The translations under genes were made by a program, and so were the position numbers. From Patescibacteria group bacterium (GTDB lineage: Bacteria > Patescibacteriota > Microgenomatia > UBA12405), in contig WARW01000001.1 in the NCBI GenBank assembly GCA_013387215.1, forward strand, positions 12,735 through 76,734: a stretch of 64,000 nt of DNA. The letters are read 5' to 3'. Below are positions 29,042 through 41,939 of the stretch, one piece after another; within the stretch, counting starts at the first letter, position 1, and each line of letters opens with the position of its first letter. The notes below the pieces were generated by a model that was not told the origin of the DNA, did no database searches, and was given only the letters and a program-made list of their open reading frames with translations.

Positions 29042-30853
29042 ATGTCAAGAAACATTGAGAGTCCAAGTTTCGTACAAATCAAAGAAGCTTTGGCTTGTCC
29101 GCATATTCAAAAAACCGCTCGCCCTATTGGTGTCGACTTGTTTTATTCGGATCTGGAAAGTGCTAAGGAAAGAAGACAGCTTTTGGAAAAAATGAGCCAT
29201 CTTTTTGATCAGATTCCAGACCTAAACATGGATGTCGATACCGCTTTAAAAAATAATTTAATTAGCTCTGAAAACTTATCTAATGTTTATCAGGATTTAT
29301 CTGATTTCATCAGCTCAGATTCCAATCATTCTCGTTTAGCTTTATATCTGCCTTTCCAAATTATTCCCAATTTAAATCCAGACAATTCAAAAAATATAAC
29401 CGAATCTCAGGTTAAATTTGCTAACGTCTATAAAAATGCTTGGATGCAATTGTTGTTTGAAAGTGATATTCGGGCGGATTTTTTAAACGGAGACACATTA
29501 GAACCAGGCCTAGGCGAACCAGCTCGAGTCAGAAAAGCAGCCCATTTAATACCGGAAATTTTAAAAAAGGGAATTATTGATAAAGAAGATATTGACTTAA
29601 TATTAGAAATAAATAAATCAGATGATGAATTATGCCATTCAATTAACGAAGGAGTAATTGCCTACGAGAAATTAAATAAATCAGAAAAATCTGAGGAAAC
29701 TTCAGAAATTTTTGATTTAGATAATTTAAAAAAAGAACTGGCTCTTATTGATAAAAATTACGGACCAAATTCAGAAAATATTTCCAAATTAAGTCTAAAG
29801 GAAAAATACGATTCGCCCAATCTGCTTGATTCAAAAATCAGCCAAGAAAGAGCTGCTTGGATAAGAAGAACTAAATATGGAGAAACTTTAAATAAATATG
29901 CCCAAAAAATTCATAATTTTAATACCATTGATTCTTTATTAGAAGCAGATGAACCAGTCTATAAAATACTTGGCTTAAAAGCGATTTTTAATCAAAATCA
30001 ACCGACTGATATCTTTGATAAATTAATTGAGGAACAGTGGTTGACTGGTAATAATCAAATCAAGGAAGCAATAATTACCGGCCTAAGTTATTGGCAAAAA
30101 AATAATCTAATTTCTTCACATTACCTAGATCGATTCGGAATTAAAATTCCTGATTTATCACAACCGTTTTCAGTTGATTTAGATAAATTAATTTTGTCCG
30201 ACCTTAAAAATATGACAGAGGCTGTAGAAGGAATTAAAAATGAATCAATTCTTTCTGAAAATATTTATCCAACCATATTAGTATTTGGATCAAGAGTCAA
30301 AGGATATTCTGGTCTTGATTCTGATTATGATATCGCTGTCTTTTTTAAACCAAACGCCTTAATTGATAACCGGAATTCAATTCTTCAATCAATCAAAGCG
30401 ATTCCTTCATTAAAAGAAGTAGGGAAGATATGTGAATTTTGGACAACCGAAAATGATGGAAAAATAGGTCTTAGACCAATCTCAGAAAAAGTTTGGGGCA
30501 TGATTGGACCGGAACAAATTCACTTTTTATTTGGAGGTGCTTGGATTGGTGATAAAACCGATATAAATAAAATACAGCAGGATCTTTTGGAAAAATATTG
30601 TGATTTATCAAGATTTGACCATCAAAAAGATTTGGTACGATCTCGCTTGCTGGGTAATTTAGAATACGATATTCTTCAATGCCGTCTTATGCATAAGGGG
30701 TATCGAAAATTTTATCCTGATAAAATTGATCCGAAAATTAAAAGTATAAACGCTATTGATGGAAATAGTGCCTTTTGGGATCCTGGGTTTAGACGAGTGG
30801 CAACGCAACTTTTTTTGAGTAGAGTATTTTTACCTGATTTATCGGGTAAATAA
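29042..30853 (+). CDS. Large protein with Pol-beta-superfamily nucleotidyltransferase domain
   Basis: FGSRVKGY..LDSDYDIAVF motif after a long helical N-terminal region. Confidence 0.7.
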   Translation: MSRNIESPSFVQIKEALACPHIQKTARPIGVDLFYSDLESAKERRQLLEKMSHLFDQIPDLNMDVDTALKNNLISSENLSNVYQDLSDFISSDSNHSRLALYLPFQIIPNLNPDNSKNITESQVKFANVYKNAWMQLLFESDIRADFLNGDTLEPGLGEPARVRKAAHLIPEILKKGIIDKEDIDLILEINKSDDELCHSINEGVIAYEKLNKSEKSEETSEIFDLDNLKKELALIDKNYGPNSENISKLSLKEKYDSPNLLDSKISQERAAWIRRTKYGETLNKYAQKIHNFNTIDSLLEADEPVYKILGLKAIFNQNQPTDIFDKLIEEQWLTGNNQIKEAIITGLSYWQKNNLISSHYLDRFGIKIPDLSQPFSVDLDKLILSDLKNMTEAVEGIKNESILSENIYPTILVFGSRVKGYSGLDSDYDIAVFFKPNALIDNRNSILQSIKAIPSLKEVGKICEFWTTENDGKIGLRPISEKVWGMIGPEQIHFLFGGAWIGDKTDINKIQQDLLEKYCDLSRFDHQKDLVRSRLLGNLEYDILQCRLMHKGYRKFYPDKIDPKIKSINAIDGNSAFWDPGFRRVATQLFLSRVFLPDLSGK

Positions 30854-32290
30854 GTATTCGTATCCTGATCTTATTTTTCTATCTTTTGCTTTTGGTCCCC
30901 ATCCTTCAGCCACTACTGGAATTTGGATCTTTTCTTCAACATAATCCAAAAAAGTATCGACCATTGTTTTGTTATTTTCGGGTTTAAGGGTAGATAAAAT
31001 TGGCTGGCATTGATTAAGTAATTTAGTCAATTGCAGTTGGTGTTTATAATGAGCTTCGTCTTGAGTATTAGGATAAATTTTAATTCCAGTAATGATATCG
31101 TTTTCCATTTCAAAGTAGTCTTCCAAATTAGTATTTTCTCCATTAAATTTATAGCCCTCACAAATCTGCCACTCATTTTTTTGAGATAAAACATCAAGAT
31201 AACTGATCATTAGACCGTCAAAAGATTTCTTTCCGCCGCTAATTTCAACAGCATATTTCATGGCCACAATATCATAATTACCATTTCTAAATTCTCCCAG
31301 CCATTCAGTCCAATTATTGTGAGTTTCCTGAATTGAATCAGTCATTTCTCGATTAAAACTAACCAGTGGGCCGGCTCCATGGCGGGTCATATAGCATCGG
31401 CTAACACCAATTCGGACTATCTCCCCTGAATAATTTTGTTTTTGAAGAGTGCCAAGAATATCTTGAGAAGTTGGATCGATTTGAGTAGTGTGAGGAATAA
31501 AGCCGTACCATGGGTGTAAAAGTGCACCATGAGAAGTTTCGCAGACCACTAAACCTTCTTGTGACAGCATTTCATTTAAATAATTATCGTCAACAATTTT
31601 GAACAAATCGGCAGTGTATTTGAATGATTTGGCAGTTGATCCAACAAAACTTTGATCATAAAGTATTTCCAATTGTTCATATGCTTCTTCCGGCAATTGA
31701 TCTAATCCAAGAATTAGTTTTTGAGCTTGTTGAATTTTATTTTGCCGGATATTTTCTATTTTTTGGCACAAAGTTTCTTCATCATCGCTAAAATCGCCGG
31801 CTCTGATTGTTAGTTGTGGATCTTTTGAATCTTTTATGGCTTCGCCAACCCCCATACCAACTGTTCCTTTCTTGTCTTTACCTCGCATAATTTCGCGAAG
31901 TCGGCTTATAGCCCGGTGAAACGGAGTTATGGAAATACATTCTTTATCGATAGTTATTAAATCGAATGGATTTTTTACTCCCTTTTCTTCAACCTCAATA
32001 GCCTCATTAAAGAGATCAGTCGGGCAGATTACCATGTGTTTTAAGTGAGTTTTAGCGCCGTCAAAAGTACCAGCCCCAAAATGGCTAAACATTTGTTCTC
32101 GCCCATCTTCGGCTGTAATATGGTGTCCGGATTGGCAGCCTCCTGATCGCCAAACAGTATGAGCATTAAGCATTTTAGTAAAAGCTTCAACTGTGTTGCC
32201 TTTGGTTTCTTCGCCAATACCTAAACCAGTAACCACAATGACTTTATTTTTGGGCTTTTCAAAATTAATATTTGAAATTATTTCTTTCAT
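30839..32290 (-). CDS. Divergent adenylosuccinate-synthetase-family ligase (copy 1)
   Basis: GLGIGEETKG, GGCQSGH, GTVGMGVG, TRHGAGP, GWGP; Asp-binding TTGR loop absent. Confidence 0.8.
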   Translation of the reverse strand: MKEIISNINFEKPKNKVIVVTGLGIGEETKGNTVEAFTKMLNAHTVWRSGGCQSGHHITAEDGREQMFSHFGAGTFDGAKTHLKHMVICPTDLFNEAIEVEEKGVKNPFDLITIDKECISITPFHRAISRLREIMRGKDKKGTVGMGVGEAIKDSKDPQLTIRAGDFSDDEETLCQKIENIRQNKIQQAQKLILGLDQLPEEAYEQLEILYDQSFVGSTAKSFKYTADLFKIVDDNYLNEMLSQEGLVVCETSHGALLHPWYGFIPHTTQIDPTSQDILGTLQKQNYSGEIVRIGVSRCYMTRHGAGPLVSFNREMTDSIQETHNNWTEWLGEFRNGNYDIVAMKYAVEISGGKKSFDGLMISYLDVLSQKNEWQICEGYKFNGENTNLEDYFEMENDIITGIKIYPNTQDEAHYKHQLQLTKLLNQCQPILSTLKPENNKTMVDTFLDYVEEKIQIPVVAEGWGPKAKDRKIRSGYEYLFTR

Positions 32291-32291
32291 A

Positions 32292-32342
32292 AACCTTTCG
32301 TCCTTTTGGACTCATCAGTATCGATACGCATCGATAGAGGTT
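32292..32342 (-). ncRNA. Type III hammerhead ribozyme (HH1)
   Basis: AACCU-C, stem I UAUCGAU/AUCGAUA, CUGAUGA, stem II GUCC-AAAA-GGAC, GAA, AGGUU; cleavage predicted after C at 32337. Confidence 0.93.
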
Positions 32343-32404
32343 GAATAGCTAAAAGCCAGTCTTTAAATTAATAAAGATAGCTTTCAGCTATTCTGTAAAG
32401 AGTG

Positions 32405-33556
32405 TTAGAACTTATTCCAATTGATTCCGCTTCCAGGCTGTTCATCCTTTATTGGTTGCTCTACAACAGTAGTTGCATCGTGCCCGATAGGCCAAATGTC
32501 GCGAAGATTGGCGAATTTGTCTCCAGGTTTGGGGATTTTATTATATCCGGGTAACTTCGCCTGGGCGCCAAAAAGCGGTTTTGCAACCTGCAGCCATCCC
32601 CATAGACGATTAACATCGCGTTGTGAAATATGATCATTGGAATTGCCAGCCAGCAAGAATTTGTTTAAACCGTCTTCGGTAGGTTGCAGAGTCTCTGTAA
32701 CATAAATTAGCCCTGCTTGAGCTTCGGCAAGTAGGTCAGGGTCAGGAATTGAAATAACTCTGTCTTCACCTAAATATTGCTGCCACCAGTAGATATTTGA
32801 ATTATTATGGCCAACATTAAGGTAAAACAAATGCCATTTTGATATCAGGCTTTCACAAACCTTTTTCAATGAAACCTTTTCGCTTTGCATGGTATGACCT
32901 AAATATCTTTCAACATCATGTTTGGTTACATACTCCCTGCAATCAGCATCAGCACCTAAGAAGAAATAACCTTTAAGACCGTAGTTTATAATGTCGACTT
33001 CTGTCTGATTATCGACATACCACAAACCAAGTTGATAATCTTCTGTCCAATCATCGCCATCTTTATCGGGAACCAATAACTCAACATGTTCAACGGCGCG
33101 ATTATCAGATTCAAATTCGGCCATTTGGAATGGAGGGTGGTCATCTTTTACATCCTGCAGAACGGCAACGGACAGATCTATTTGATATCTATCCTGTAAT
33201 TCTGACAGCATACAATAGACCTTCCCCATTGCCTTAAGAGCAAGTGCTACTTTTTCGCCCATTGAACCGGTTCCGTCTGTTCCTAAGATAGTCGGTAATT
33301 TAATACCTTTTGCCAATATATATATTTTTTTTCCAGCCTCATCCAACAGCACCATCGCGTTACGAGAAAGACGTTTAACACCAAAAATATTAACATTTTG
33401 ATGTAATTTGCCAGTTTTTTTGAAAACTTCATGACCTTTCTCATGAACAGTTTCGGTAAATCTCACCCCTTTCGTTGTTGCTCTTTCTTCCATTTTTCTA
33501 ACGGTTTCTACATGCTTCACTGCATTAAAAGTAGAGGTATCTTGCTTCCTTGCCAT
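32405..33556 (-). CDS. VWA-domain protein (copy 1)
   Basis: MIDAS-like DGTGS, PFQMAEFES, EDYQL, KGYFFLGAD; aligns with 38215-39762. Confidence 0.75.
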   Translation of the reverse strand: MARKQDTSTFNAVKHVETVRKMEERATTKGVRFTETVHEKGHEVFKKTGKLHQNVNIFGVKRLSRNAMVLLDEAGKKIYILAKGIKLPTILGTDGTGSMGEKVALALKAMGKVYCMLSELQDRYQIDLSVAVLQDVKDDHPPFQMAEFESDNRAVEHVELLVPDKDGDDWTEDYQLGLWYVDNQTEVDIINYGLKGYFFLGADADCREYVTKHDVERYLGHTMQSEKVSLKKVCESLISKWHLFYLNVGHNNSNIYWWQQYLGEDRVISIPDPDLLAEAQAGLIYVTETLQPTEDGLNKFLLAGNSNDHISQRDVNRLWGWLQVAKPLFGAQAKLPGYNKIPKPGDKFANLRDIWPIGHDATTVVEQPIKDEQPGSGINWNKF

Positions 33557-33587
33557 TTAAATCAACCCTTTCTTTTTTTAATTTTTT

Positions 33588-34553
33588 TTACCTTGGATAC
33601 GTCCGAAATTCATGAAATTGTCTTTTTAACCCTTTTCCATCCCAAGTCGGTTCTTTTGGCCAAATTTCATCAGATAGTTTGTAAAGATCATCAAACTCCT
33701 CCCCAGCAGCTTTAGCATCACCATCCATAATTCTTCGTAAGAAAGAAACATACTTATCGTAAGCATCTTTACTCATAATTTCCGAATCATAAGGCGGATT
33801 TGATTTTTCAGTGCCTCCGGCTGCTTCCCAGGCTATTTTTGCCGCTGCCACAACTTCTCGAATCTTATCGGCATAACTCGGATCTCCCTTAGTATTGGAA
33901 AAATCCAGTATAAATACTCCATGAAGTGCAGTTTCGACAAGTTCATTGTCGGCATTAACCAATCCAACCGTTAAATCAAAACTGTGGACAAAATACAGCA
34001 ACTTCAAAAGTTTTCCAAATATCCATTGGACACTTTTCAAATCAACCCTTTCCGTTGCTGTTATTACCGATAGTGGTGTTAATTGTTTATAAGAATTTAT
34101 ATTCTCGTGGTATCCCAAAAACAAAGCTGTTCTGTCTCCGGCGTCAATTTTTTCAATTAACTTCGGAAACATCGATCCGTAAAATGCTGGAGTTTCGTTT
34201 TTGCTTATCGCTTCCTGATCTAGTTCATGAGCAATTCGTTGAAGCTTTTTGAGCGTTAATGCTTCATTGTTAAGAACATTATTGCGCTCACTGCTGTTAA
34301 CGATTTTCATTAATCCGAATTGACTTGATGGTAATTTTGCTGCATAAACTCTAAATACGCTTGTTTGGGCTATTGGTAATGGATTTGGGTTATCTCCGGA
34401 TTTTAAACCGAAAATTTCATACTGGCCATTCAATCCATCGTAAAAACCCATGCTGATTAAATTAGATTCAGCTGGATTTTCACTTGGAACTAATAAGGCG
34501 ACATTTAACACTAAATCCGTTAGCCATCCTGTTGAAGAATCATTTTTTGGCAT
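33588..34553 (-). CDS. Protein-kinase-fold protein lacking HRD catalytic Asp (copy 1)
   Basis: LMKI, NEA..L, VQWIFGKLL, VGLVNADN, ILDFS. Confidence 0.65.
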   Translation of the reverse strand: MPKNDSSTGWLTDLVLNVALLVPSENPAESNLISMGFYDGLNGQYEIFGLKSGDNPNPLPIAQTSVFRVYAAKLPSSQFGLMKIVNSSERNNVLNNEALTLKKLQRIAHELDQEAISKNETPAFYGSMFPKLIEKIDAGDRTALFLGYHENINSYKQLTPLSVITATERVDLKSVQWIFGKLLKLLYFVHSFDLTVGLVNADNELVETALHGVFILDFSNTKGDPSYADKIREVVAAAKIAWEAAGGTEKSNPPYDSEIMSKDAYDKYVSFLRRIMDGDAKAAGEEFDDLYKLSDEIWPKEPTWDGKGLKRQFHEFRTYPR

Positions 34554-34556
34554 TTT

Positions 34557-34754
34557 TCACACCCCTCTCATTAATTCATTCATAAAATATTTCTTAACGT
34601 TTTTTCGTTCTCTAAAGTATTCATGGATGTAGCTTCTTTCTTTAACTTTAAACTCCTTTCTCACCTGACTGATGTCTGACTCTTCAGAAACAGGTAATAA
34701 TGAAGCAAAACATAAAACTAATCCAGTCAGCCATTCCTCAGGTGTTTTTCTCAT
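34557..34754 (-). CDS. Small 65-aa protein sharing N-terminal motif with the kinase-fold proteins
   Basis: SD GAAAGGGTG; EEWLTGLVL resembles TGWLTDLVL and QSWLTGVVL. Confidence 0.75.
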   Translation of the reverse strand: MRKTPEEWLTGLVLCFASLLPVSEESDISQVRKEFKVKERSYIHEYFRERKNVKKYFMNELMRGV

Positions 34755-34786
34755 TCCGATTCACCCTTTCTATTACTAACACTTTA

Positions 34787-34798
34787 TTGTTAAAGAAC
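34787..34798 (-). promoter_or_regulatory. boxA-like antitermination motif
   Basis: GTTCTTTAACAA preceded by a hairpin; one of about 10 similar leader motifs in the window. Confidence 0.6.
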
Positions 34799-34847
34799 TT
34801 TTAATAAGATCATGACCGCTTTGACCAAGATCTTACCCAGATATCAT

Positions 34848-34908
34848 CCCAAATTCCTTTCGTCCTTTTGGACTCATCAGTATCGATACACATCGACAGA
34901 GGATTGGG
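34848..34908 (-). ncRNA. Type III hammerhead ribozyme (HH2)
   Basis: UCCU-C, stem I UGUCGAU/AUCGAUA, CUGAUGA, GUCC-AAAA-GGAC, GAA, AGGA; cleavage predicted after C at 34899. Confidence 0.93.
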
Positions 34909-34975
34909 GGAGTTTGTTTTTTTTATTGAGTATTGATACTCAAAACAAACTCCGCCCGGGACTATCATTTGATTT

Positions 34976-35395
34976 TTAGATTCTAATCCGTGAATCAGCA
35001 GGCCTGATGCCTTTTTGGTAAACCAATTGCATTAGTACCTTTAGTTGCGGACCAAAATCCTTTTTCAGATCTTCAGGCATAGTATTAAGAAACTGGTAGT
35101 CATCCTTGAAAAGAAAGCTAGATAAACTAGTCAATTCCGGATTTTTTTCAACCAGACTCAAATATGCCTCCCTGGTGGCGGTTGTAAACACTTCTTTGGG
35201 AGCACAGGCACGCAGGGTTAAGATGTGAACAGGTTTCATCGTATTCCAACCAGTCTTATGTTCGGAAAACATGTTGGCATCCATACGTTCTGCATTCTCA
35301 AATAACCAAGTGGCAACTTTGGAAACATCTTCCTCTTGAATTATCCTCAGATAATCCCTCAGGAAATCATTACTTGCGAAAGGAATTGCCTCCAG
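34976..35395 (-). CDS. Hypothetical protein, start uncertain (possible CTG)
   Basis: Protein-like helical frame filling the gap; AAGGAGG 9 nt before in-frame CTG at 35395. Confidence 0.55.
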   Translation of the reverse strand: MEAIPFASNDFLRDYLRIIQEEDVSKVATWLFENAERMDANMFSEHKTGWNTMKPVHILTLRACAPKEVFTTATREAYLSLVEKNPELTSLSSFLFKDDYQFLNTMPEDLKKDFGPQLKVLMQLVYQKGIRPADSRIRI

Positions 35396-36488
35396 CGGGT
35401 CGGTCCTCCTTAGACAGTTTTTCCCATGGAATCGATGTACCGAGTTGTAACAGGGCAGCAAGATATGCATATTCATATTGGCCAGCTGTTACTTTCGGAT
35501 ATTCCATAATGGACAAAGCATACCTGGTGATACTACGCTCCATTCTGACATAATCAGCTGAAACATTCACATCAAGCATTTTGAGCATCTGTTCTTTGTT
35601 GGCGGCGCCAATTTGAGCTGGTAGGGCTGAATTTTCCAAAACCTCTTTGATTCTGTTGGCATCCAATGCTAAAGCCCTGGCAATCACGATACCTGTGCCG
35701 GCAAAAACCTTGTTGATCTTATCAATCACACCTTCAGCTCCATCGCGCAATGCGCTTGTATCGGGTGGCTGCTGCATCATACCTGCTGGCATTCCTGCTT
35801 GGCCTCCTGTTGCATAAATAGCAAGAGCCATCATTGCTGTAGGAGCTACTCCTTGCTGGTACGAATTAACCCATGACACAACCTGCTGGTTGTACTCGTA
35901 GAGTGCTGGCCAGAGATTCGTCCTGAGTTTATTGAGCAACGCGTCTTTCTTTCCCTGGGTTACGCTGGCACTGTCGATGTCGAGAGCCTGGAAGATTTCT
36001 GCATAATTACGTTTGGTAACCAGTTTCTGCAGCTTGTAGAAATCTTCTCCGCACGGTTCTTCCTGTTCTTCGGCAAATTTTTCCATCCGGTCCATAATGA
36101 TTTTGGGCAATTCGTAAAGACCGCTTTTGTCTGCCAATGTTGCCCTGATGGCTGCAATAATTTCAGTTATGCCGATTTTCAGCTCTCCACCTATTTTCAG
36201 CATGGCTAAAAATGAGGTATCGTCCGGAACCTGTGGCAGAACGTCCATTGACGGTTGAGCTGCTGCTGTTGCAGTTGCTTCAATTTTCGGTTTTTCCTCC
36301 TCTTTGGGTTTGAATGCTGCCGCAATTTTTTTTGCTACCACAGCACCGCATCCGGCATAAGATTTGATCTCGTCGGCTGACAATAAAACCATGTCCGCTT
36401 CAGTCATTACCCCTTCAGTTTCCAGTTTTGCAATTTGGTCTTCTTTAAGTCCGAGCTCGGTTAGCCTCAGTTTCAATGTTTCTTCCAT
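35370..36488 (-). CDS. Hypothetical protein with N-terminal SAM/HhH-like domain
   Basis: LTELGL..QIAKLE.EGV..EADMVLLS.DEI..G.G.V.AKKI pattern, linker, helical domain; ATG after GAAGGGAG; visibly more GC-rich than flanks. Confidence 0.7.
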   Translation of the reverse strand: MEETLKLRLTELGLKEDQIAKLETEGVMTEADMVLLSADEIKSYAGCGAVVAKKIAAAFKPKEEEKPKIEATATAAAQPSMDVLPQVPDDTSFLAMLKIGGELKIGITEIIAAIRATLADKSGLYELPKIIMDRMEKFAEEQEEPCGEDFYKLQKLVTKRNYAEIFQALDIDSASVTQGKKDALLNKLRTNLWPALYEYNQQVVSWVNSYQQGVAPTAMMALAIYATGGQAGMPAGMMQQPPDTSALRDGAEGVIDKINKVFAGTGIVIARALALDANRIKEVLENSALPAQIGAANKEQMLKMLDVNVSADYVRMERSITRYALSIMEYPKVTAGQYEYAYLAALLQLGTSIPWEKLSKEDRPAGGNSFRK

Positions 36489-36670
36489 AACAAAATCTCC
36501 CTTCATCTTTGAAATCACCACTATACAGTCATATCCATATTTATGACTAATGGCTTGCTGGACACAAATTTTGTACCCAAAAAGCCACTAGTCATTTATA
36601 TTCAAATGATAGTCTTTGTAAAAATTTTTTTCTTTCACCAGCTTTTGGTGTAAATCAAAAAATCCTTACT

Positions 36671-36724
36671 TTGTTAAAGTGCAAATTTAGCCTATAGCTT
36701 AGCACAAGGGATTGCTGTAGTCAA
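36671..36724 (-). promoter_or_regulatory. Sigma70 promoter and boxA-like motif of operon copy 1
   Basis: TTGACT-17-TAAGCT with TG extension, followed by GCACTTTAACAA. Confidence 0.65.
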
Positions 36725-36806
36725 TCAAAAATTATTGATCATTACCGTAATATTTTTCGTAATCATAAAATATAATCATAAACTTATAATAATTAAAATT
36801 TTTACC

Positions 36807-36865
36807 AAAAAAAACCTCAATTTAGAAATTAATTAGCATTCGCTAAAAAATTTCACCATTGAGGT
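36807..36865 (-). terminator. Intrinsic terminator of operon copy 2
   Basis: ACCTCAAT...ATTGAGGT long hairpin followed by U-tract. Confidence 0.65.
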
Positions 36866-36866
36866 A

Positions 36867-38213
36867 TTAAATATCAATCGAAATCTTTTGATCTCGATCA
36901 GGGCCAACTGAAATTAAACCGATAGGAACGCCTAATTGTCCCTCGATATACTCCAGTAAGCTTCTAGTTTTAGAAGGTAAGTCTAAATAATTTTTGATAT
37001 TTGAAATATCATCTTCCCATCCTGGAAGGGTAGTGTAGACAGGCTGGCAGTTCCAAAGCAATTTCGACATTACTTCATCCTGCTTTTGCAGTTTCACTCC
37101 TACAATCTGATTATTGGGCCCGAAATCAAAGTATTTGTTTAAGGTTTCTTCGCTCTCTTTGCCGATATATCGGTAAGAATTTGCAAATTTGATTTCTTTT
37201 AAACCAGACATTTTGTCCAAGCAGGACACTACCAGTTTGTCGATTCTTTTGTTCACTTGAAGCGAATATCTAAGCAGTACAAAATCTAGCCAGCCTTGTC
37301 TGACAAATCTTTGCCAAGGAGTATAAACGTTATGAGTTTCTTCCAGATTTAAGTTTTCATCTACTGTTGGAAATGGTCCTGCCCCATGTCGGACACTGTA
37401 TGGTCTTAATAATCCTAGTATAACCGCTTCTTTTTCTCCAAGAAGTTCCAATGCATTAGCTATGGATGTCCTAGTCTGGGTGATATTTGGTTTAAAACCA
37501 TAATCGCAATCCAAAATTGTGCCCTGAGCTGCCTCAAAAATATTATTTTGAGTTTGGATTATCTTTTGTATTTCTTCATCACTTAAAATACCCACCCTTT
37601 TGGTAAGTTCCAAATAAATTTTAGCCAATCCTTTTGGTGAGTACATTTCAAACTCTTCTAAAAGTATTTTTGTTTCTTCGTTACTGGCTAGCTGTTCTAT
37701 CTGGTCAAGTTTTAACATCTTTAGTGTTTTTAGCTTGTATTCCAGATCAGGTCTCAACAGATCTTTCGCTCTAATACTAAATGCAGGATTTGTCCTTTCA
37801 TCTATAACCGTTTCTCCAACACCTCTTCCGCAAGTTCCTTTTTTGGTTGTTCTTAGTATTTCTTTTATCTTTCCGCAGATTATTTGGTAGGGGGTAATTA
37901 CTAAAGAGTTTTCTGATATCAATAATTTTTCAAATGGATCAGAAATACCCTTAGTTTCTAGTTTTTCTCCCTCTACCAAAATTCCGATTGGATCAATCAA
38001 AGTAAACTTTGAAATTATAGTTTTTAAACCAACAAAGGTTCCGGATCCGAATTGGGAAAAGGTGTGGTGGATCCCACTCGACACCACATTGTGAGCACAC
38101 TGAGATCCACCGCAATATCTGACCACATTTCCTCCATATTTTGAGGCTAAAAAATCAACCATTGATCCTTTACATTCGTCACCTTTATCTAGGCCCACAG
38201 TTATCCAATCCAT
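36867..38213 (-). CDS. Divergent adenylosuccinate-synthetase-family ligase (copy 2)
   Basis: GLDKGDECKG, GGSQCAHN, GTCGRGVG, EAAQG, VRHGAGPFPT, GWLD, ISVGPDR. Confidence 0.85.
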   Translation of the reverse strand: MDWITVGLDKGDECKGSMVDFLASKYGGNVVRYCGGSQCAHNVVSSGIHHTFSQFGSGTFVGLKTIISKFTLIDPIGILVEGEKLETKGISDPFEKLLISENSLVITPYQIICGKIKEILRTTKKGTCGRGVGETVIDERTNPAFSIRAKDLLRPDLEYKLKTLKMLKLDQIEQLASNEETKILLEEFEMYSPKGLAKIYLELTKRVGILSDEEIQKIIQTQNNIFEAAQGTILDCDYGFKPNITQTRTSIANALELLGEKEAVILGLLRPYSVRHGAGPFPTVDENLNLEETHNVYTPWQRFVRQGWLDFVLLRYSLQVNKRIDKLVVSCLDKMSGLKEIKFANSYRYIGKESEETLNKYFDFGPNNQIVGVKLQKQDEVMSKLLWNCQPVYTTLPGWEDDISNIKNYLDLPSKTRSLLEYIEGQLGVPIGLISVGPDRDQKISIDI

Positions 38214-38214
38214 C

Positions 38215-39762
38215 TTAAAGTCTCCTTGTCTTTGACCCTGTTGTCTTGTTTACAGGTTTATTGTCGGGCATTTTCATATCGACTGTAATTTCTGGCACCA
38301 AACTATTGTCCAGTGGCCTTAAAGCAGTTTCGATGTCATTTTGCCGTTCTATGGTTTGATCTCTATCACGCATATCCTTGATGTAGTCTGACAATTCTCG
38401 GCCTCCGTATCTTGCCAAAACTCCGATAATCAAATCAACAATTCCTTTTGGATCTTTCAATCTTAAAACATGATCCTCGGGAATTACCGATGACCATTGC
38501 GCCACGATCACGTCGTCTTGGTAGTTAGCATATTTATCCTTTGTTTCCGTTATTCTTTGTTCTGGATCATAATCAAACTCCAGAATTAGTATATTACTGT
38601 TTTCCCTTGTCTTATAAGCTGGCATTACCTTTTCAAAATGCTGTATTTCACCATTGATTTCAACTTCCACAGTAAACTGTGTTTCTATACTTTCTGATTG
38701 GTGAAAAGCATAGTTTTGAACATACACTTTATAGTGTCCTTTTCTGGCTCTGCCTTTTTCCCATCTGATATTTTCCACAGGTTTTGTTGTTTCCCCGTGC
38801 ACATTCATATCTACATCCAAAAAACCTCCACACGGAGCCTTTTTGTTCTCACTTGGATAGTAAATATGAAAACCAGATGGGGTAATCACATGTAAGTCCA
38901 AGTCATTGGTGTTGTGCCAAATCAGTGAAACCCTAATATCGACTCCCTCATACAAGCCCCCGGCTCTTTCGACTCTCTTTTTGATCTCATTATCAATATC
39001 AGTTTTTCTTTTTTCCCATGTTTTTTGCGGGAAAATAAAGAATACTTCATATTTATCCTGAAGATCAGCAAAAACTTTCTTTGAGTCTAGGTCTTCGGGA
39101 ATATCATCGCCGATTATTCTTTTGACTTCATCTTTCGATACTTTGTCATAAAATCCTTCATCGCCAATGAAAAAAAGATAACCTTTTTCTCCGCGGTCAT
39201 TAGCCTCCAACGTTGAGTGATAAGCATAAAAATAACCCATCAATTCATAGGATTCTTGCCCGGTGCCGCCGCCGCCTTTTTCTGGCCACATGCATGAAAG
39301 CACTTCATCAATTTTGTCGTCATAATAAAATTTGCCGACTTGAATTGGTGCTTTGTCAAACTTAGCGTCGCCCAAACCAGCAAAACTAATCACTGGATTA
39401 AGAACGTAGCCCTTCATATTTATTTGGCCAATGAGCATTGGGACTTTTTTGTCGATTATTTCAATATCCTTTCCGCGTGAATCGGTAAAATCTGAAACCA
39501 CTACGATTGGTGTTACTTTTGCTGCTATGTTACGGATAAAATCCAAACACTGTCGAAATGCATTTTTTGGATCAAGACTAGCATGAACCACTCTTTCTTT
39601 TGTAGCATTTTTACCCACCACATCATATTGATATTCTGTATTCACACTGCTTGTTCCCACGCTTCTTTCGTAAAAAACCATATCAGATGGTCCATCGCCG
39701 TCTCCGCCTCCCATTAAAAATGGTGCCAAAAAAGCACAACGCAGTATTCTTAAAAATTTCAT
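38215..39762 (-). CDS. VWA-domain protein with inserted YfaP/DUF2135-like domain (copy 2)
   Basis: DFTDS, GGGGTGQESYEL, KGYLFFIGDE; insert VSLIW..NDLDLHV..PSG..GG.LDVD..PVENI. Confidence 0.8.
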   Translation of the reverse strand: MKFLRILRCAFLAPFLMGGGDGDGPSDMVFYERSVGTSSVNTEYQYDVVGKNATKERVVHASLDPKNAFRQCLDFIRNIAAKVTPIVVVSDFTDSRGKDIEIIDKKVPMLIGQINMKGYVLNPVISFAGLGDAKFDKAPIQVGKFYYDDKIDEVLSCMWPEKGGGGTGQESYELMGYFYAYHSTLEANDRGEKGYLFFIGDEGFYDKVSKDEVKRIIGDDIPEDLDSKKVFADLQDKYEVFFIFPQKTWEKRKTDIDNEIKKRVERAGGLYEGVDIRVSLIWHNTNDLDLHVITPSGFHIYYPSENKKAPCGGFLDVDMNVHGETTKPVENIRWEKGRARKGHYKVYVQNYAFHQSESIETQFTVEVEINGEIQHFEKVMPAYKTRENSNILILEFDYDPEQRITETKDKYANYQDDVIVAQWSSVIPEDHVLRLKDPKGIVDLIIGVLARYGGRELSDYIKDMRDRDQTIERQNDIETALRPLDNSLVPEITVDMKMPDNKPVNKTTGSKTRRL

Positions 39763-39785
39763 TTTAAAAACCCCTTTCCTTATTC

Positions 39786-40694
39786 TTAAAATTCAAACAC
39801 TTGGAATCCGATATCTCCCCATATTTCTTTCCTCAATTCGTACAGTTTTTTTGCCATATCCCATGCATCCCTAGCCCTTTGTATTGGACTGGAGATTAAA
39901 AAGTTTTCTATAAATCTTTGGAATCGGGGGTCAACAGTATCAGGAAGACTATTATCCTCAAGATTGCCACCCAAAAGGTAAATCATACATTTACCAATGG
40001 AATACATATCTGAAGATTCTTTTGGTTCGTCTTTTTTCTGCACCTCCGGAGCGCTGTAATCATCATTTACTGCCCTAAAACCAGCCTTATTTATTGAAGC
40101 ATAACTCCAATCAATCAAACAGGCATTATGGTCATCTTTATGATTAGTCAGCAAATCCACAGGTTTTATGAGAATGTGTGCCGGTTCAATATTGCAATGA
40201 AATATTCCTTTACTATGGGCATATCCCACTGCTGCTAAAATTCGGCACAGCATCCAGGCGGCATGATAATCGGGAACTCCCGACACATACAATGGATGTT
40301 CTCTGATTTGGTTAAGGTTGAAACCCTCAAACTTCTGAAGAATTATCCCCACCGTCTTTTCTTTTGTTTTAAATCTATCCAGGAATTTTGGCAAATGAAC
40401 TTGGTTTTGGTTTTCTTCTGCAAATAATGCATTTAAGATTTTTATCTCATTATTTGCAAACTTATTGTCGATTTCTTCTTTGATTACTTTAACAATGATG
40501 TTTATGCTTTCGCTTTCATTGGCAAAATAACCCTCATAAATCATCGACAAGTCGCCCTCACCAATAACTTTGTTGACGTGGTATTCACGATTTTTAATCG
40601 TTATTACCCAGTCCAGTTTCTCAGATTCATTTGTTGCATTTGAAGCCCCTAAAACTACACCAGTCAACCAGCTTTGAGGATTTTTTTCATCCAT
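39786..40694 (-). CDS. Ser/Thr-kinase-fold protein with HCN in place of HRD (copy 2)
   Basis: IGEGD, IIVK, NEIKIL, HCNIEPAH, LIDWS, SAPE, SDMYSIG; ATG 40694 after GAAAGGGTG. Confidence 0.8.
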   Translation of the reverse strand: MDEKNPQSWLTGVVLGASNATNESEKLDWVITIKNREYHVNKVIGEGDLSMIYEGYFANESESINIIVKVIKEEIDNKFANNEIKILNALFAEENQNQVHLPKFLDRFKTKEKTVGIILQKFEGFNLNQIREHPLYVSGVPDYHAAWMLCRILAAVGYAHSKGIFHCNIEPAHILIKPVDLLTNHKDDHNACLIDWSYASINKAGFRAVNDDYSAPEVQKKDEPKESSDMYSIGKCMIYLLGGNLEDNSLPDTVDPRFQRFIENFLISSPIQRARDAWDMAKKLYELRKEIWGDIGFQVFEF

Positions 40695-40713
40695 TTTTAT
40701 CACCCTTTCTTTA

Positions 40714-41319
40714 TTAATCAGTTTCGATTTTGATATCAAACTTTTGCTTTTCTATACACAGCTTTTGAGCAATTTCCACCTGGTCGTAAAAATTCTTTTT
40801 TATTATTTTTTCATTCATCCCAAATTCTTCTACATCCCTTTTAATCCTCCTTTCCAATCTCGTTTTTGAACTCGCCGACATAAAAATATTTACTTTTTGC
40901 TCAAGATTTCCAATAGCTTCGCTGATCATTGAAGCATATAATCCTTCAACGATAATGTATTTTTGGGAAACTATCGCTTTTGTACCTACTCTCATGTTTG
41001 TTCTAATATCGTAATCAGGAAACATAACTTCTTTTTCTACTGAAAGTTTTTTGATATAACCTTTCATTTCTTCAATATGATAAGAGCTTGGCATATCAAA
41101 CGATCGATAACCGCTTATTATTGGCAAAGAATTATCGTTTTTGTTTTTAAAGCAATCATCCATTTCTACAACCACACTCTCATCATTCAAAAACTCTTTA
41201 AGTAATTTAGCTAAATATGTTTTGCCTGAACAACTGCCGCCGCTGATAAAAATAAAATAGGGGAAAACTGAAGCCTCTTTAATTTTGCTTATTAACCAAT
41301 CTACATTCAAATCAATCAC
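40714..41319 (-). CDS. Uridine kinase-like P-loop kinase
   Basis: GGSCSGKT, MDD, FDMP, IIVEG, RLERRIKRD. Confidence 0.82.
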   Translation of the reverse strand: MIDLNVDWLISKIKEASVFPYFIFISGGSCSGKTYLAKLLKEFLNDESVVVEMDDCFKNKNDNSLPIISGYRSFDMPSSYHIEEMKGYIKKLSVEKEVMFPDYDIRTNMRVGTKAIVSQKYIIVEGLYASMISEAIGNLEQKVNIFMSASSKTRLERRIKRDVEEFGMNEKIIKKNFYDQVEIAQKLCIEKQKFDIKIETD

Positions 41320-41468
41320 TTCCTTTCTAAAATTAGTTTTTAAAGTGCTGTCATCATAAAATCTTGCGATTTTTACAATGCGACCGATTGTAACATTTAC
41401 AAGCTAATTCCTCAAAGTTTTGGCTTATTTATCTTGGAAATTAAATTTAGTCTCACTCAAAGCTGGAT

Positions 41469-41939
41469 TTACTGTTTTATTCTCTTGCAAAAATTATCAA
41501 ACTTTTCTTGATAAATTTTTTTGTCTTTTAATTCTTTTGTATTCCACCCTTCAAAAATATCAATCTTTTTATCTACCAATTTTTGCAAGCTAGCCACTGT
41601 TTTCTCTGGTTTAGTATCGCCGGAAGTAATAAAAATTATTACTTTTTTAAATTGTTTTTTAAATTTATCAATATAAGTCCTTACTGCTGGAGTTGAATTC
41701 CAACCCCATACTGGTGTGCCGACAATAACGACATCATAATCTTTTGGATCTTTACAGGTTTTTATTTCAGTTAAATATTCTTTCATTCCATCTCTTCCGC
41801 TCAAAAGCCAGCCTTTTATTCCGCTTCTGTCTTTTAAATCGATTATTTCATCAACATCTGCTTTTAAATTTTCAGCCAAATCCAAAGCTACCCTTTTAGT
41901 ATTTCCTGTTTTTGAATAATAGGTGATTAAGTATTTCAT
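41469..41939 (-). CDS. Flavodoxin family protein
   Basis: YYSKTGNT, GTPVW. Confidence 0.88.
   Translation of the reverse strand: MKYLITYYSKTGNTKRVALDLAENLKADVDEIIDLKDRSGIKGWLLSGRDGMKEYLTEIKTCKDPKDYDVVIVGTPVWGWNSTPAVRTYIDKFKKQFKKVIIFITSGDTKPEKTVASLQKLVDKKIDIFEGWNTKELKDKKIYQEKFDNFCKRIKQ

Follow-up and report, generated by a model that had tools for sequence, protein, structure and literature searches.

Gene content and features of the locus

Two hammerhead ribozyme motifs lie at gene boundaries within a block of co-directional genes in an ultra-small, Shapirobacteria-type bacterium of the candidate phyla radiation (CPR). The window analyzed here is a stretch of 64,000 nucleotides (nt) from assembly GCA_013387215.1 (contig WARW01000001.1, Patescibacteria group bacterium). 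The motifs, HH1 and HH2, are on its minus strand in the same orientation, 2.56 kb apart, and both are located between minus-strand open reading frames (ORFs). An earlier note made from the sequence had described two type III hammerheads on the sense strand of an operon and had proposed that they cut its transcript into three RNAs. The host genome has a size of 1.3 Mb and a GC content of 34%, and it is estimated to be 98.6% complete. In what follows, G000 is the window's own genome, labels of the form G0xx are genomes of relatives, and labels of the form Lxxx are the loci compared. The features of the ribozyme operon are listed from 5' to 3', with protein lengths in amino acids (aa) and helix lengths in base pairs (bp).

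36696..36724, minus strand: promoter-like sequence TTGACT-17 nt-(TGc)TAAGCT, read by eye
35370..36488, minus strand: first gene of the ribozyme operon, about 372 aa if the ATG at 36488 is used, behind AAGGGAG; no family match
34976..35476, minus strand: 166-aa ORF, the last ORF ahead of the HH2 hairpin and HH2; no family match
34909..34953, minus strand: HH2 hairpin with a 12-bp outer and a 6-bp inner stem, past the 166-aa ORF and adjoining HH2
34848..34908, minus strand: HH2, type III hammerhead ribozyme motif, predicted cut 34899 (C17)/34898, based on sequence, RF00008, fold, and orthologs in L119 and G010
34557..34754, minus strand: 65-aa ORF, the first ORF past HH2
33588..34553, minus strand: 321-aa protein with an ortholog in L121
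32405..33556, minus strand: 383-aa protein with an ortholog in L121
32343..32393, minus strand: HH1 hairpin, imperfect, about 22 bp, without a U-tract, 11 nt past the stop codon of the 383-aa gene and 0 nt from helix III
32292..32342, minus strand: HH1, type III hammerhead ribozyme motif, predicted cut 32337 (C17)/32336, based on sequence, RF00008, fold, and orthologs
30839..32290, minus strand: 483-aa divergent adenylosuccinate-synthetase-like (PurA-superfamily) protein, the cistron immediately past HH1

The earlier note had named a SAM-like gene, a kinase, a VWA protein, and a PurA-like ligase in this operon. The last of these labels holds. The 483-aa protein matches Pfam PF00709 (E 5.8e-47), and its best score against the NCBIfam purA equivalog models, 124.7 bits, is far under the 402-bit cut-off. 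The SAM-like label has no support from Pfam or NCBIfam, and the kinase and VWA labels are leads from language-model Atlas rows. On that basis the 321-aa protein may be kinase-like, which is a lead only, and BLASTP finds no similarity between it and the Pkinase protein of the neighboring operon. A possible vWA-like fold of the 383-aa protein is a weak lead, with a score of 0.83 that is at chance level. The 383-aa protein is a paralog of a 515-aa protein in the neighboring operon (E 5e-12).

Pfam matches among the 15 ORFs from 27.4 to 43.1 kb include PurA-like proteins, kinases, a nucleotidyltransferase, flavodoxin, and radical SAM, and no phage or integrase families are found among the ORFs of that stretch. 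None of the six ribozyme-operon proteins matches a PADLOC defense model, the sole match being the Pkinase protein of the neighboring operon. The GC content across the ribozyme operon is unremarkable at 36-41%. The PurA-like gene converges with a plus-strand gene for a 603-aa nucleotidyltransferase-domain protein (29042-30853). Because the two genes overlap by 15 nt at 30839-30853, there is no space for a terminator at that point. The same convergent gene pair is found in G010.

Sequence and fold of the two motifs

HH1 and HH2 both have the complete core of a type III hammerhead. Read from 32342 to 32292 on the minus strand, HH1 consists of AACCUC, the predicted cut, UAUCGAU, the loop GCGU, AUCGAUA, CUGAUGA, GUCC, the loop AAAA, GGAC, GAAA, and GGUU. 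A single U follows and then the ATG of the PurA-like gene at 32290, and the 3' strand of helix III stops 1 nt short of this ATG; the earlier note had described it as running straight into the ATG. HH2 has the same core and helix II. The differences between the copies preserve pairing, which also agrees with that note: one pair of helix I is G-U in HH2 and A-U in HH1, and helix III is AACCU/AGGUU in HH1 and UCCU/AGGA in HH2, where the 4 bp grow to 8 bp if two bulges are allowed. All conserved core positions of the family (C3 U4 G5 A6 N7 G8 A9, G12 A13 A14, the A15.1-U16.1 pair, and H17) are present in both copies (CUGAUGA ... GAAA, U16.1, and C17), and the cleavage triplet is CUC. Helix I has 7 bp, helix II has 4 bp, and helix III has 4-5 bp; helices I and II are closed by loops, and helix III is open to the flanks. 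The predicted new 5' ends are at 32336 (HH1) and 34898 (HH2). The two copies are near-identical over about 50 nt, and their flanks are unrelated. The window contains two occurrences of their 23-nt core string, and 100 shuffles contain none.

The minimum-energy fold in native context is exactly the hairpin plus the three-way junction for both copies (HH1, -43.0 kcal/mol, z -6.85; HH2, -43.2 kcal/mol, z -2.76). The Rfam hammerhead model RF00008 (clan CL00010) matches both in a search space of 4.5 kb, HH1 with 28.6 bits (E 0.0042) and HH2 with 27.3 bits (E 0.0094). Both scores are under the gathering score of 48.5 bits. At the gathering level, Rfam finds only six tRNAs in the window and neither hammerhead. 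The gathering threshold is a curation cut-off and not a structural feature. The core, topology, and helix lengths of the two copies match model positions 7-48, while loop II has 4 nt compared to 8 in the model consensus.

Hammerheads in the genus and covariation

Hammerheads are found in many genomes of the genus, and their helices covary. There are six in G000, on contigs C1, C11, and C15, and RF00008 matches are present in 24 of the 36 other genomes of the genus. Two genus relatives pass the RF00008 gathering score, with 49.1 and 49.2 bits. An alignment of 29 genus hammerheads (A1) was used to build a covariance model (R1). The R1 scores of HH1 and HH2 are not independent because both are among the 29 training sequences. 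When A1 is placed on the hammerhead structure, 93.9% of the cells are paired, compared to 70.7% in shuffles and 28-46% in slid registers. Fourteen of the 17 pairs vary on both sides, and the observed covariation score is reached by none of 500 shuffles. R1 finds 70 hammerheads in 31 of the 38 genus genomes, and these make up alignment A2. Beyond the genus, a phylum-wide sample of 150 genomes includes 20 with R1 matches. At E <= 1, R1 finds no further hammerhead in the rest of the window. Since it matches only HH1 and HH2, the paralogous operon at 36867-41319 lacks hammerheads, as the earlier note had stated.

Two other observations were made on the genus set. Eight of the 70 hammerheads (e.g., L044 5014-5084 in G019 and L035 1490-1560 in G032) have A at 16.1 and the triplets AAC, CAC, or CAT. 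They carry GAAU in place of GAAA, so that the normally invariant U15.1-A16.1 pair is swapped, and their three helices are intact. Such copies may be decaying, or they may represent an active variant. In addition, 13 genus hammerheads lie 0-15 nt ahead of the start of a gene for a protein of about 288-293 aa, which is a second conserved pairing of ribozyme and gene in the genus. These include L010, L012, L013, L023, L025, L026, L044, L062-L064, L071, L072, L085, and others. In G019 the gene reads like a family-2 glycosyltransferase.

Conservation in orthologous operons

The positions of the ribozymes are conserved in related operons. Orthologs of the PurA-like protein are found in G010 (54% identity) and in seven metagenome loci (45-64% identity). 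L120 has the same matches and ORF lengths as G010 and is counted with it once, giving eight operons in total. Seven of the eight have a hammerhead immediately upstream of the PurA-like gene, at PurA-like protein identities of 51-64%, and the exception is L121. In the orthologs, helix III is 1 to 20 nt from the PurA-like start codon. The upstream ribozyme is present in three of the five assessable operons (the window, G010, and L119) and absent from L115 and L121. The earlier note had asked whether homologous operons keep the ribozymes, and in these proportions they do.

The ribozymes of these loci have changed in sequence while keeping their structure. In a set of 11, which includes one L115 copy from outside the operon, 93% of the cells pair, 9 of the 17 pairs show compensatory changes, and none of 500 shuffles reaches the score; the alignment was fitted to the model, which favors pairing. 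Among the operon ribozymes, compensatory changes occur in all three helices. The AAAA of loop II is kept in 10 of the 11 copies.

The ribozymes were also considered as a component of the PurA-like system as such, and this was rejected. PurA-like matches are found in 10 of the 401 phylum genomes sampled, including G000. Twelve distant PurA-like loci were compared: nine from nine other phylum genomes, those of G003 and G013, and the window's paralogous operon. None has a hammerhead at E <= 1 within 1.5-kb flanks, and G003 and G013 have none over 12-kb stretches. Since the distant loci carry none, the ribozymes belong to the lineage and the operon type and not to the PurA-like system.

The hairpin-hammerhead module

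A long hairpin precedes each ribozyme, as the earlier note had described. The 70 nt upstream of HH1 fold with -26.9 kcal/mol (z -7.1) and those upstream of HH2 with -24.5 kcal/mol (z -6.7), the z-scores being relative to mononucleotide shuffles. The gap between hairpin and helix III is 0 nt at HH1 and 2 nt at HH2. This arrangement is general in the genus. For 67 of the 70 hammerheads, the 150 nt ahead of helix III include the end of an ORF of 60 aa or more on the same strand (median distance 75 nt), compared to 22 of 70 in the opposite-strand control. The upstream 70 nt have a median energy of -23.0 kcal/mol and a median z of -5.3, with z < -2 in 62 of 70, while the values for the downstream 70 nt are -8.0 kcal/mol and -0.5, with z < -2 in 11 of 70. 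In 42 of the 70, the last pair of the hairpin is 0-3 nt from helix III. Six of the seven HH1 orthologs have such a hairpin, and the hairpin sequences are unrelated; the exception, L118, has only about 100 nt of upstream sequence. Nearly all genus hammerheads thus form part of a module of stop codon, hairpin, and hammerhead.

A "fail-safe terminator" made up of a hairpin and a U-tract overlapping helix III was tried as a description of the module, and HH1 and HH2 do not fit it. At least five U in the 8 nt after the hairpin are found in 14 of the 70 genus modules, seven of which have a UUUU run.

The same data bear on the possibility that the ribozymes are neutral or selfish passengers, that is, spreading repeats or decaying relics without a role in operon expression. 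Near-identity over about 50 nt between unrelated flanks, the presence of six copies in the genome, a core change in the G010 copy of HH2, and the absence of hammerheads from all 12 distant PurA-like loci point in this direction. The reading is nevertheless contradicted because the positions are conserved with compensatory change: the HH1 site is kept in seven of eight operons at 51-64% protein identity, and all three helices have been maintained by paired substitutions. Furthermore, the ribozymes adhere strictly to one orientation and spacing relative to the preceding stop codon (67 of 70), and the hairpins persist though their sequences differ. It is quite improbable that HH1 and HH2 are passengers.

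Downstream context and the boundaries of expression units

The genus hammerheads fall into two classes according to what follows them. In 24 of the 70, helix III is followed after 0-28 nt by the start of an ATG-led ORF of 60 aa or more, as at HH1, and in 21 of these the distance is at most 15 nt. Among the other 46, a sigma-70-like promoter (>=9/12) is found within 120 nt downstream in 22, and in 14 the match is >=10/12. The same promoter criteria applied upstream of those 46 hammerheads give 7 and 2, respectively. HH2 fits neither class cleanly, as the next ORF is 98 nt downstream and no promoter passing the scan criteria is found between HH2 and the 65-aa ORF.

A TATAAT-like hexamer directly followed by TTGACA recurs 10-20 nt past hammerheads (L014, L024, L028, L060, L073, L074, L079, and L082). 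A perfect or near-perfect promoter begins with this TTGACA. Some of the eight loci are probably orthologs of one another.

The first class of hammerheads raises the question of translation. The earlier note had proposed that any ribosome-binding site of the PurA-like gene overlaps HH1, so that the ribozyme could control translation. In such a switch, helix III would mask the start, and self-cleavage would free it. The 1-nt distance between helix III and the AUG and the 24 start-adjacent hammerheads of the genus (21 within 15 nt) are in line with this. The folding energies are not. Opening the region from -15 to +12 at HH1 costs 7.4 kcal/mol before cleavage and 7.1 kcal/mol after it. For 30 hammerheads next to a start codon, the two costs differ by a median of 0.15 kcal/mol, and only three of the 30, two of which have the same sequence, reach 3 kcal/mol. 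These opening energies cover secondary structure only, without tertiary structure or kinetics. Helices I and II persist past cleavage. Shine-Dalgarno-like motifs are also scarce in G000 (among 984 ORFs that begin with ATG and have 150 aa or more, 57 carry GGAG in the 20 nt upstream), and the HH1 core has its AAGG at -7 and not at the usual -13/-14. Cleavage-gated translation was rejected on the folding energies and is improbable.

The second class bears on the possibility of separate transcription units. HH2, and perhaps HH1, might only trim read-through RNA, with the later genes transcribed mainly from their own unrecognized promoter and no polycistron being cut in three. The 46 genus hammerheads without a nearby start codon, 22 of them with a downstream promoter-like site, would fit such an arrangement, as would a promoter-like site in the HH2-equivalent spacer of L121 and the boxA-like leader motif past HH2 that is described below. 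At the locus itself the evidence goes the other way. The stretch from HH2 to the 65-aa ORF has no promoter that passes the same criteria, and with the best by-eye candidate past HH2 the transcript would begin within the boxA-like motif. The sequence that separates HH2 from that motif shows no conservation between G000 and L119, and there is no room for a promoter at HH1. Separate units are an unlikely explanation, with some chance of being correct.

L121 shows what can take the place of the ribozymes. This locus lacks both of them and has the same gene order of kinase-like (38% identity, E 2e-68), 383-aa-like (31% identity, E 5e-64), and PurA-like genes. The gene ahead of these three has no relation to the 166-aa ORF of the window. 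The 64-nt spacer equivalent to that of HH1 contains the best terminator-like site of the region, with 11 pairs, 8 of them G-C, and a T-run, followed by AAGGAG and ATG. The spacer equivalent to that of HH2 contains the best promoter-like site, TTGACA-17-TATCAT (11/12). Since terminator- and promoter-like signals occupy both sites in L121, the ribozymes appear to mark boundaries between expression units.

boxA-like motifs

Sequences resembling boxA are found in the operon leader and past HH2. The consensus is that of E. coli, and all match counts rest on it. Three such motifs are located at the two operons.

34787..34798, minus strand: boxA-like GUUCUUUAACAA, 11/12 to consensus, on the predicted 3' product of HH2, 56 nt past helix III and 32 nt ahead of the ATG that starts the 65-aa ORF
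36671..36682, minus strand: boxA-like GCACUUUAACAA, 11/12 to consensus, in the operon leader, about 8 nt past the by-eye transcription start
41337-41348, minus strand: boxA-like GCACUUUAAAAA, in the leader of the paralogous PurA-like operon

A boxA-like motif lies past all three HH2 orthologs. L119 carries GUACUUUAACAA at the same distance of +56 nt past its ortholog, and G010 has a looser match at +4. In the genus, 8 of the 70 hammerheads have such a motif within 160 nt downstream, and none has one upstream or in antisense; the background is 0.009 per 160 nt. Genome-wide, 23 of the 42 boxA-like matches are intergenic, while ORFs of 100 aa or more leave just 14% of the genome uncovered. A looser match is located about 100 nt ahead of the 16S gene (C1:98386-98397, plus strand). 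These matches suggest that Nus-type antitermination leaders may be common on mRNAs of G000.

In L001, a near-identical pair of hammerheads (768-839 and 1493-1564; G000:C15:180861-181657) flanks a single gene for a secreted-looking protein of about 134 aa. A boxA-like motif is found 78 nt past the first of the pair.

Proposed processing of the operon RNA

HH1 and HH2 are canonical type III hammerhead motifs, each with an upstream hairpin, and it is rather probable that they cut the operon RNA at two gene boundaries, as predicted. From the features described above we infer cleavage in vivo, the fates of the products, and a role for the boxA-like motifs. When the polymerase passes the module, the hammerhead would fold and cleave itself after C17 during transcription. 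HH2 would separate the kinase-like and 383-aa genes from the two upstream genes, and HH1 would separate the PurA-like cistron from the kinase-like and 383-aa genes. Self-cleavage into three RNAs, the outcome foreseen in the earlier note, is thus a prediction from sequence, and the single transcript and the effect on stoichiometry are proposals of that note.

The set of RNA decay enzymes in the genome suggests how the products might behave. PNPase, RNase J, RNase Y, and Rho are present. Neither the RNB family (RNase II/R) nor RtcB has a match in this genome, which is estimated to be 98.6% complete, and the sole family of 3' exonucleases identified is PNPase. According to PMC10250234, RNA cut by a hammerhead ends in a 2',3'-cyclic phosphate, and a phosphate at the 3' end may inhibit PNPase, though not RNase II/R. 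The upstream RNA would end in a stable hairpin, a tail of 6-7 nt (AACCUC or AAUCCUC), and the cyclic phosphate, and it would probably be a poor substrate for PNPase. Since only PNPase, and no RNase II/R, is found in this organism, such a hairpin and its short phosphorylated tail should make a long-lasting 3' end. The downstream RNA would start with a 5'-hydroxyl (5'-OH) and the folded ribozyme. On the 3' product of HH2, the boxA-like motif might let Nus factors reload once the tether to the leader boxA is cut.

Cleavage at both sites would also release the 2.56-kb RNA between them, and its excision and circularization, as in retrozymes or viroid-like RNAs, were considered. Two ribozymes in the same orientation bracket three genes, and Perreault et al. 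(PMC3088659) mention circular or spliced products as a possibility, with none detected by them. A circle would have to be closed without RtcB, since this ligase family has no match in the genome, and the hybrid helix III formed by the 5' strand of HH1 (AACCU) and the 3' strand of HH2 (AGGAAUU) pairs over only 2-3 bp. For these two reasons a circular RNA was set aside as unlikely, and the chance that it forms is very slight.

Several findings weigh against self-cutting of the operon RNA by HH1 and HH2. Both copies score well under the gathering level of RF00008. Their loops are short (loop I is GCGU or GUGU and loop II is AAAA), and the tertiary contact between loops or stems I and II that gives fast cleavage at low, cellular Mg2+ is uncertain for them. 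The G010 copy of HH2 (L043 7707-7777, equal to L120 3671-3741) has CCGAUGA in the core (U4->C) and a helix III of 3 bp, and its helices I and II are perfect. This copy may be impaired, and at its conserved site it looks like a ribozyme losing activity; because of the core change and the 3-bp helix III, the HH2 site appears to tolerate decay in at least one lineage. L115 has neither HH2 nor a structured replacement there (z -0.1). The promoter that the earlier note had placed near 36700 can be seen by eye, but it fails the consensus scan with a -10 element of only 3/6, and a promoter for a single polycistron is unconfirmed. The promoter and terminator scan of 30500-41800 is itself uninformative, since its 27 promoter-like sites do not exceed the 34.3 expected. 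The replacement of the ribozymes by a terminator and a promoter is known from the single locus L121. The genus counts overstate independence because many of the 70 hammerheads are orthologous loci in related genomes. Finally, the z-scores of the hairpins come from mononucleotide shuffles, and the association with hairpins is weak outside the genus (z < -2 in 12 of 21 upstream compared to 7 of 22 downstream).

A broader proposal can be made tentatively. In this CPR lineage, the hairpin and hammerhead might together be a general, protein-independent device for making mRNA 3' ends on chromosomal genes, interchangeable with classical terminators at boundaries inside operons and coupled to a boxA close behind the cut, through which the polymerase would re-acquire its antitermination factors when its RNA tether is lost. 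We regard this as possible and would not yet lean towards it.

Relation to known systems

Processing of long RNAs by gene-flanking hammerheads has been in print since 2011. In Perreault et al. (2011; PMC3088659), hammerheads flank genes in bacterial and prophage-associated polycistronic RNAs, in vitro cleavage is shown for three tandem arrangements, and processing to gene- or operon-length mRNAs is proposed with its purpose left unknown. A 2019 review (PMC6765202), which also mentions the glmS ribozyme, still calls the role of such hammerheads open and untested. The mechanism in the earlier note is plausible but is the published, unproven one. The additions made here are the regular hairpin module, the conservation at orthologous sites, the terminator and promoter swap, and the boxA lead.

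The window's pair resembles the clusters of PMC3088659 in that several hammerheads of the same orientation lie in spacers of a co-directional block, and the same role is proposed. Most of those clusters neighbor integrases or prophages and have variable cargo, whereas the window's pair is on a CPR chromosome with no phage gene among the 15 neighboring ORFs. Unlike those clusters, the window's ribozymes recur at orthologous positions and belong to a regular module of stop codon, hairpin, and hammerhead. Three arrangements cleaved in vitro in that study, while cleavage by the window's pair is a prediction.

The literature search, which left subscription journals and about 1.7 million PMC articles outside its reach, found no paper that connects hammerheads with CPR bacteria. 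Within the same limits, and among the papers listed, it found no natural module in which an upstream hairpin and a hammerhead make a 3' end and no boxA behind a natural ribozyme; only engineered ribozymes turned up for the latter.

Leaders with boxA provide a comparison for the region past HH2. As in the Nus antitermination leaders of rrn operons (PMC10250234), both the operon leader and the predicted 3' product of HH2 carry, close to their 5' ends, a 12-nt motif with 11 of 12 matches to the E. coli consensus. NusB and NusE act at boxA leaders, while the window's motifs are known as sequence matches.

The module has similarities to two other kinds of RNA element. Inside operons, the 3' ends of mRNAs are set and protected by intrinsic terminators and 3' stem-loops. 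As with these, a stable hairpin just past the stop codon would become the 3' end of the upstream RNA. Unlike an intrinsic terminator, the window's module would have its end made by predicted self-cleavage and not by polymerase release, and the end would carry a cyclic phosphate. Because the end is made in this way, transcription of the downstream gene would continue. The glmS ribozyme cleaves itself in the 5' untranslated region, and RNase J1 then degrades the 5'-OH product. The window's motifs are like glmS in that predicted self-cleavage in an mRNA leader would give a 5'-OH product in an organism with RNase J. They differ in having the hammerhead fold and no ligand-binding domain, and their downstream genes are presumably meant for expression.

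Significance

The locus is a clean test case for the role of bacterial hammerheads. A conserved chromosomal operon carries both ribozymes at fixed positions, and the hairpins predict the exact 3' ends of the upstream RNAs. In a natural relative, L121, a terminator-like and a promoter-like signal occupy the corresponding spacers. For the design of synthetic operons, the module offers a compact natural part. If it is a general 3'-end device in this lineage, this would be the first defined cellular job for bacterial hammerheads. If cleavage and protection by the hairpins are true, a genome-reduced bacterium, in which RNase II/R and RtcB are not found and Shine-Dalgarno motifs are rare, would set different fates for mRNAs within one operon by RNA alone.

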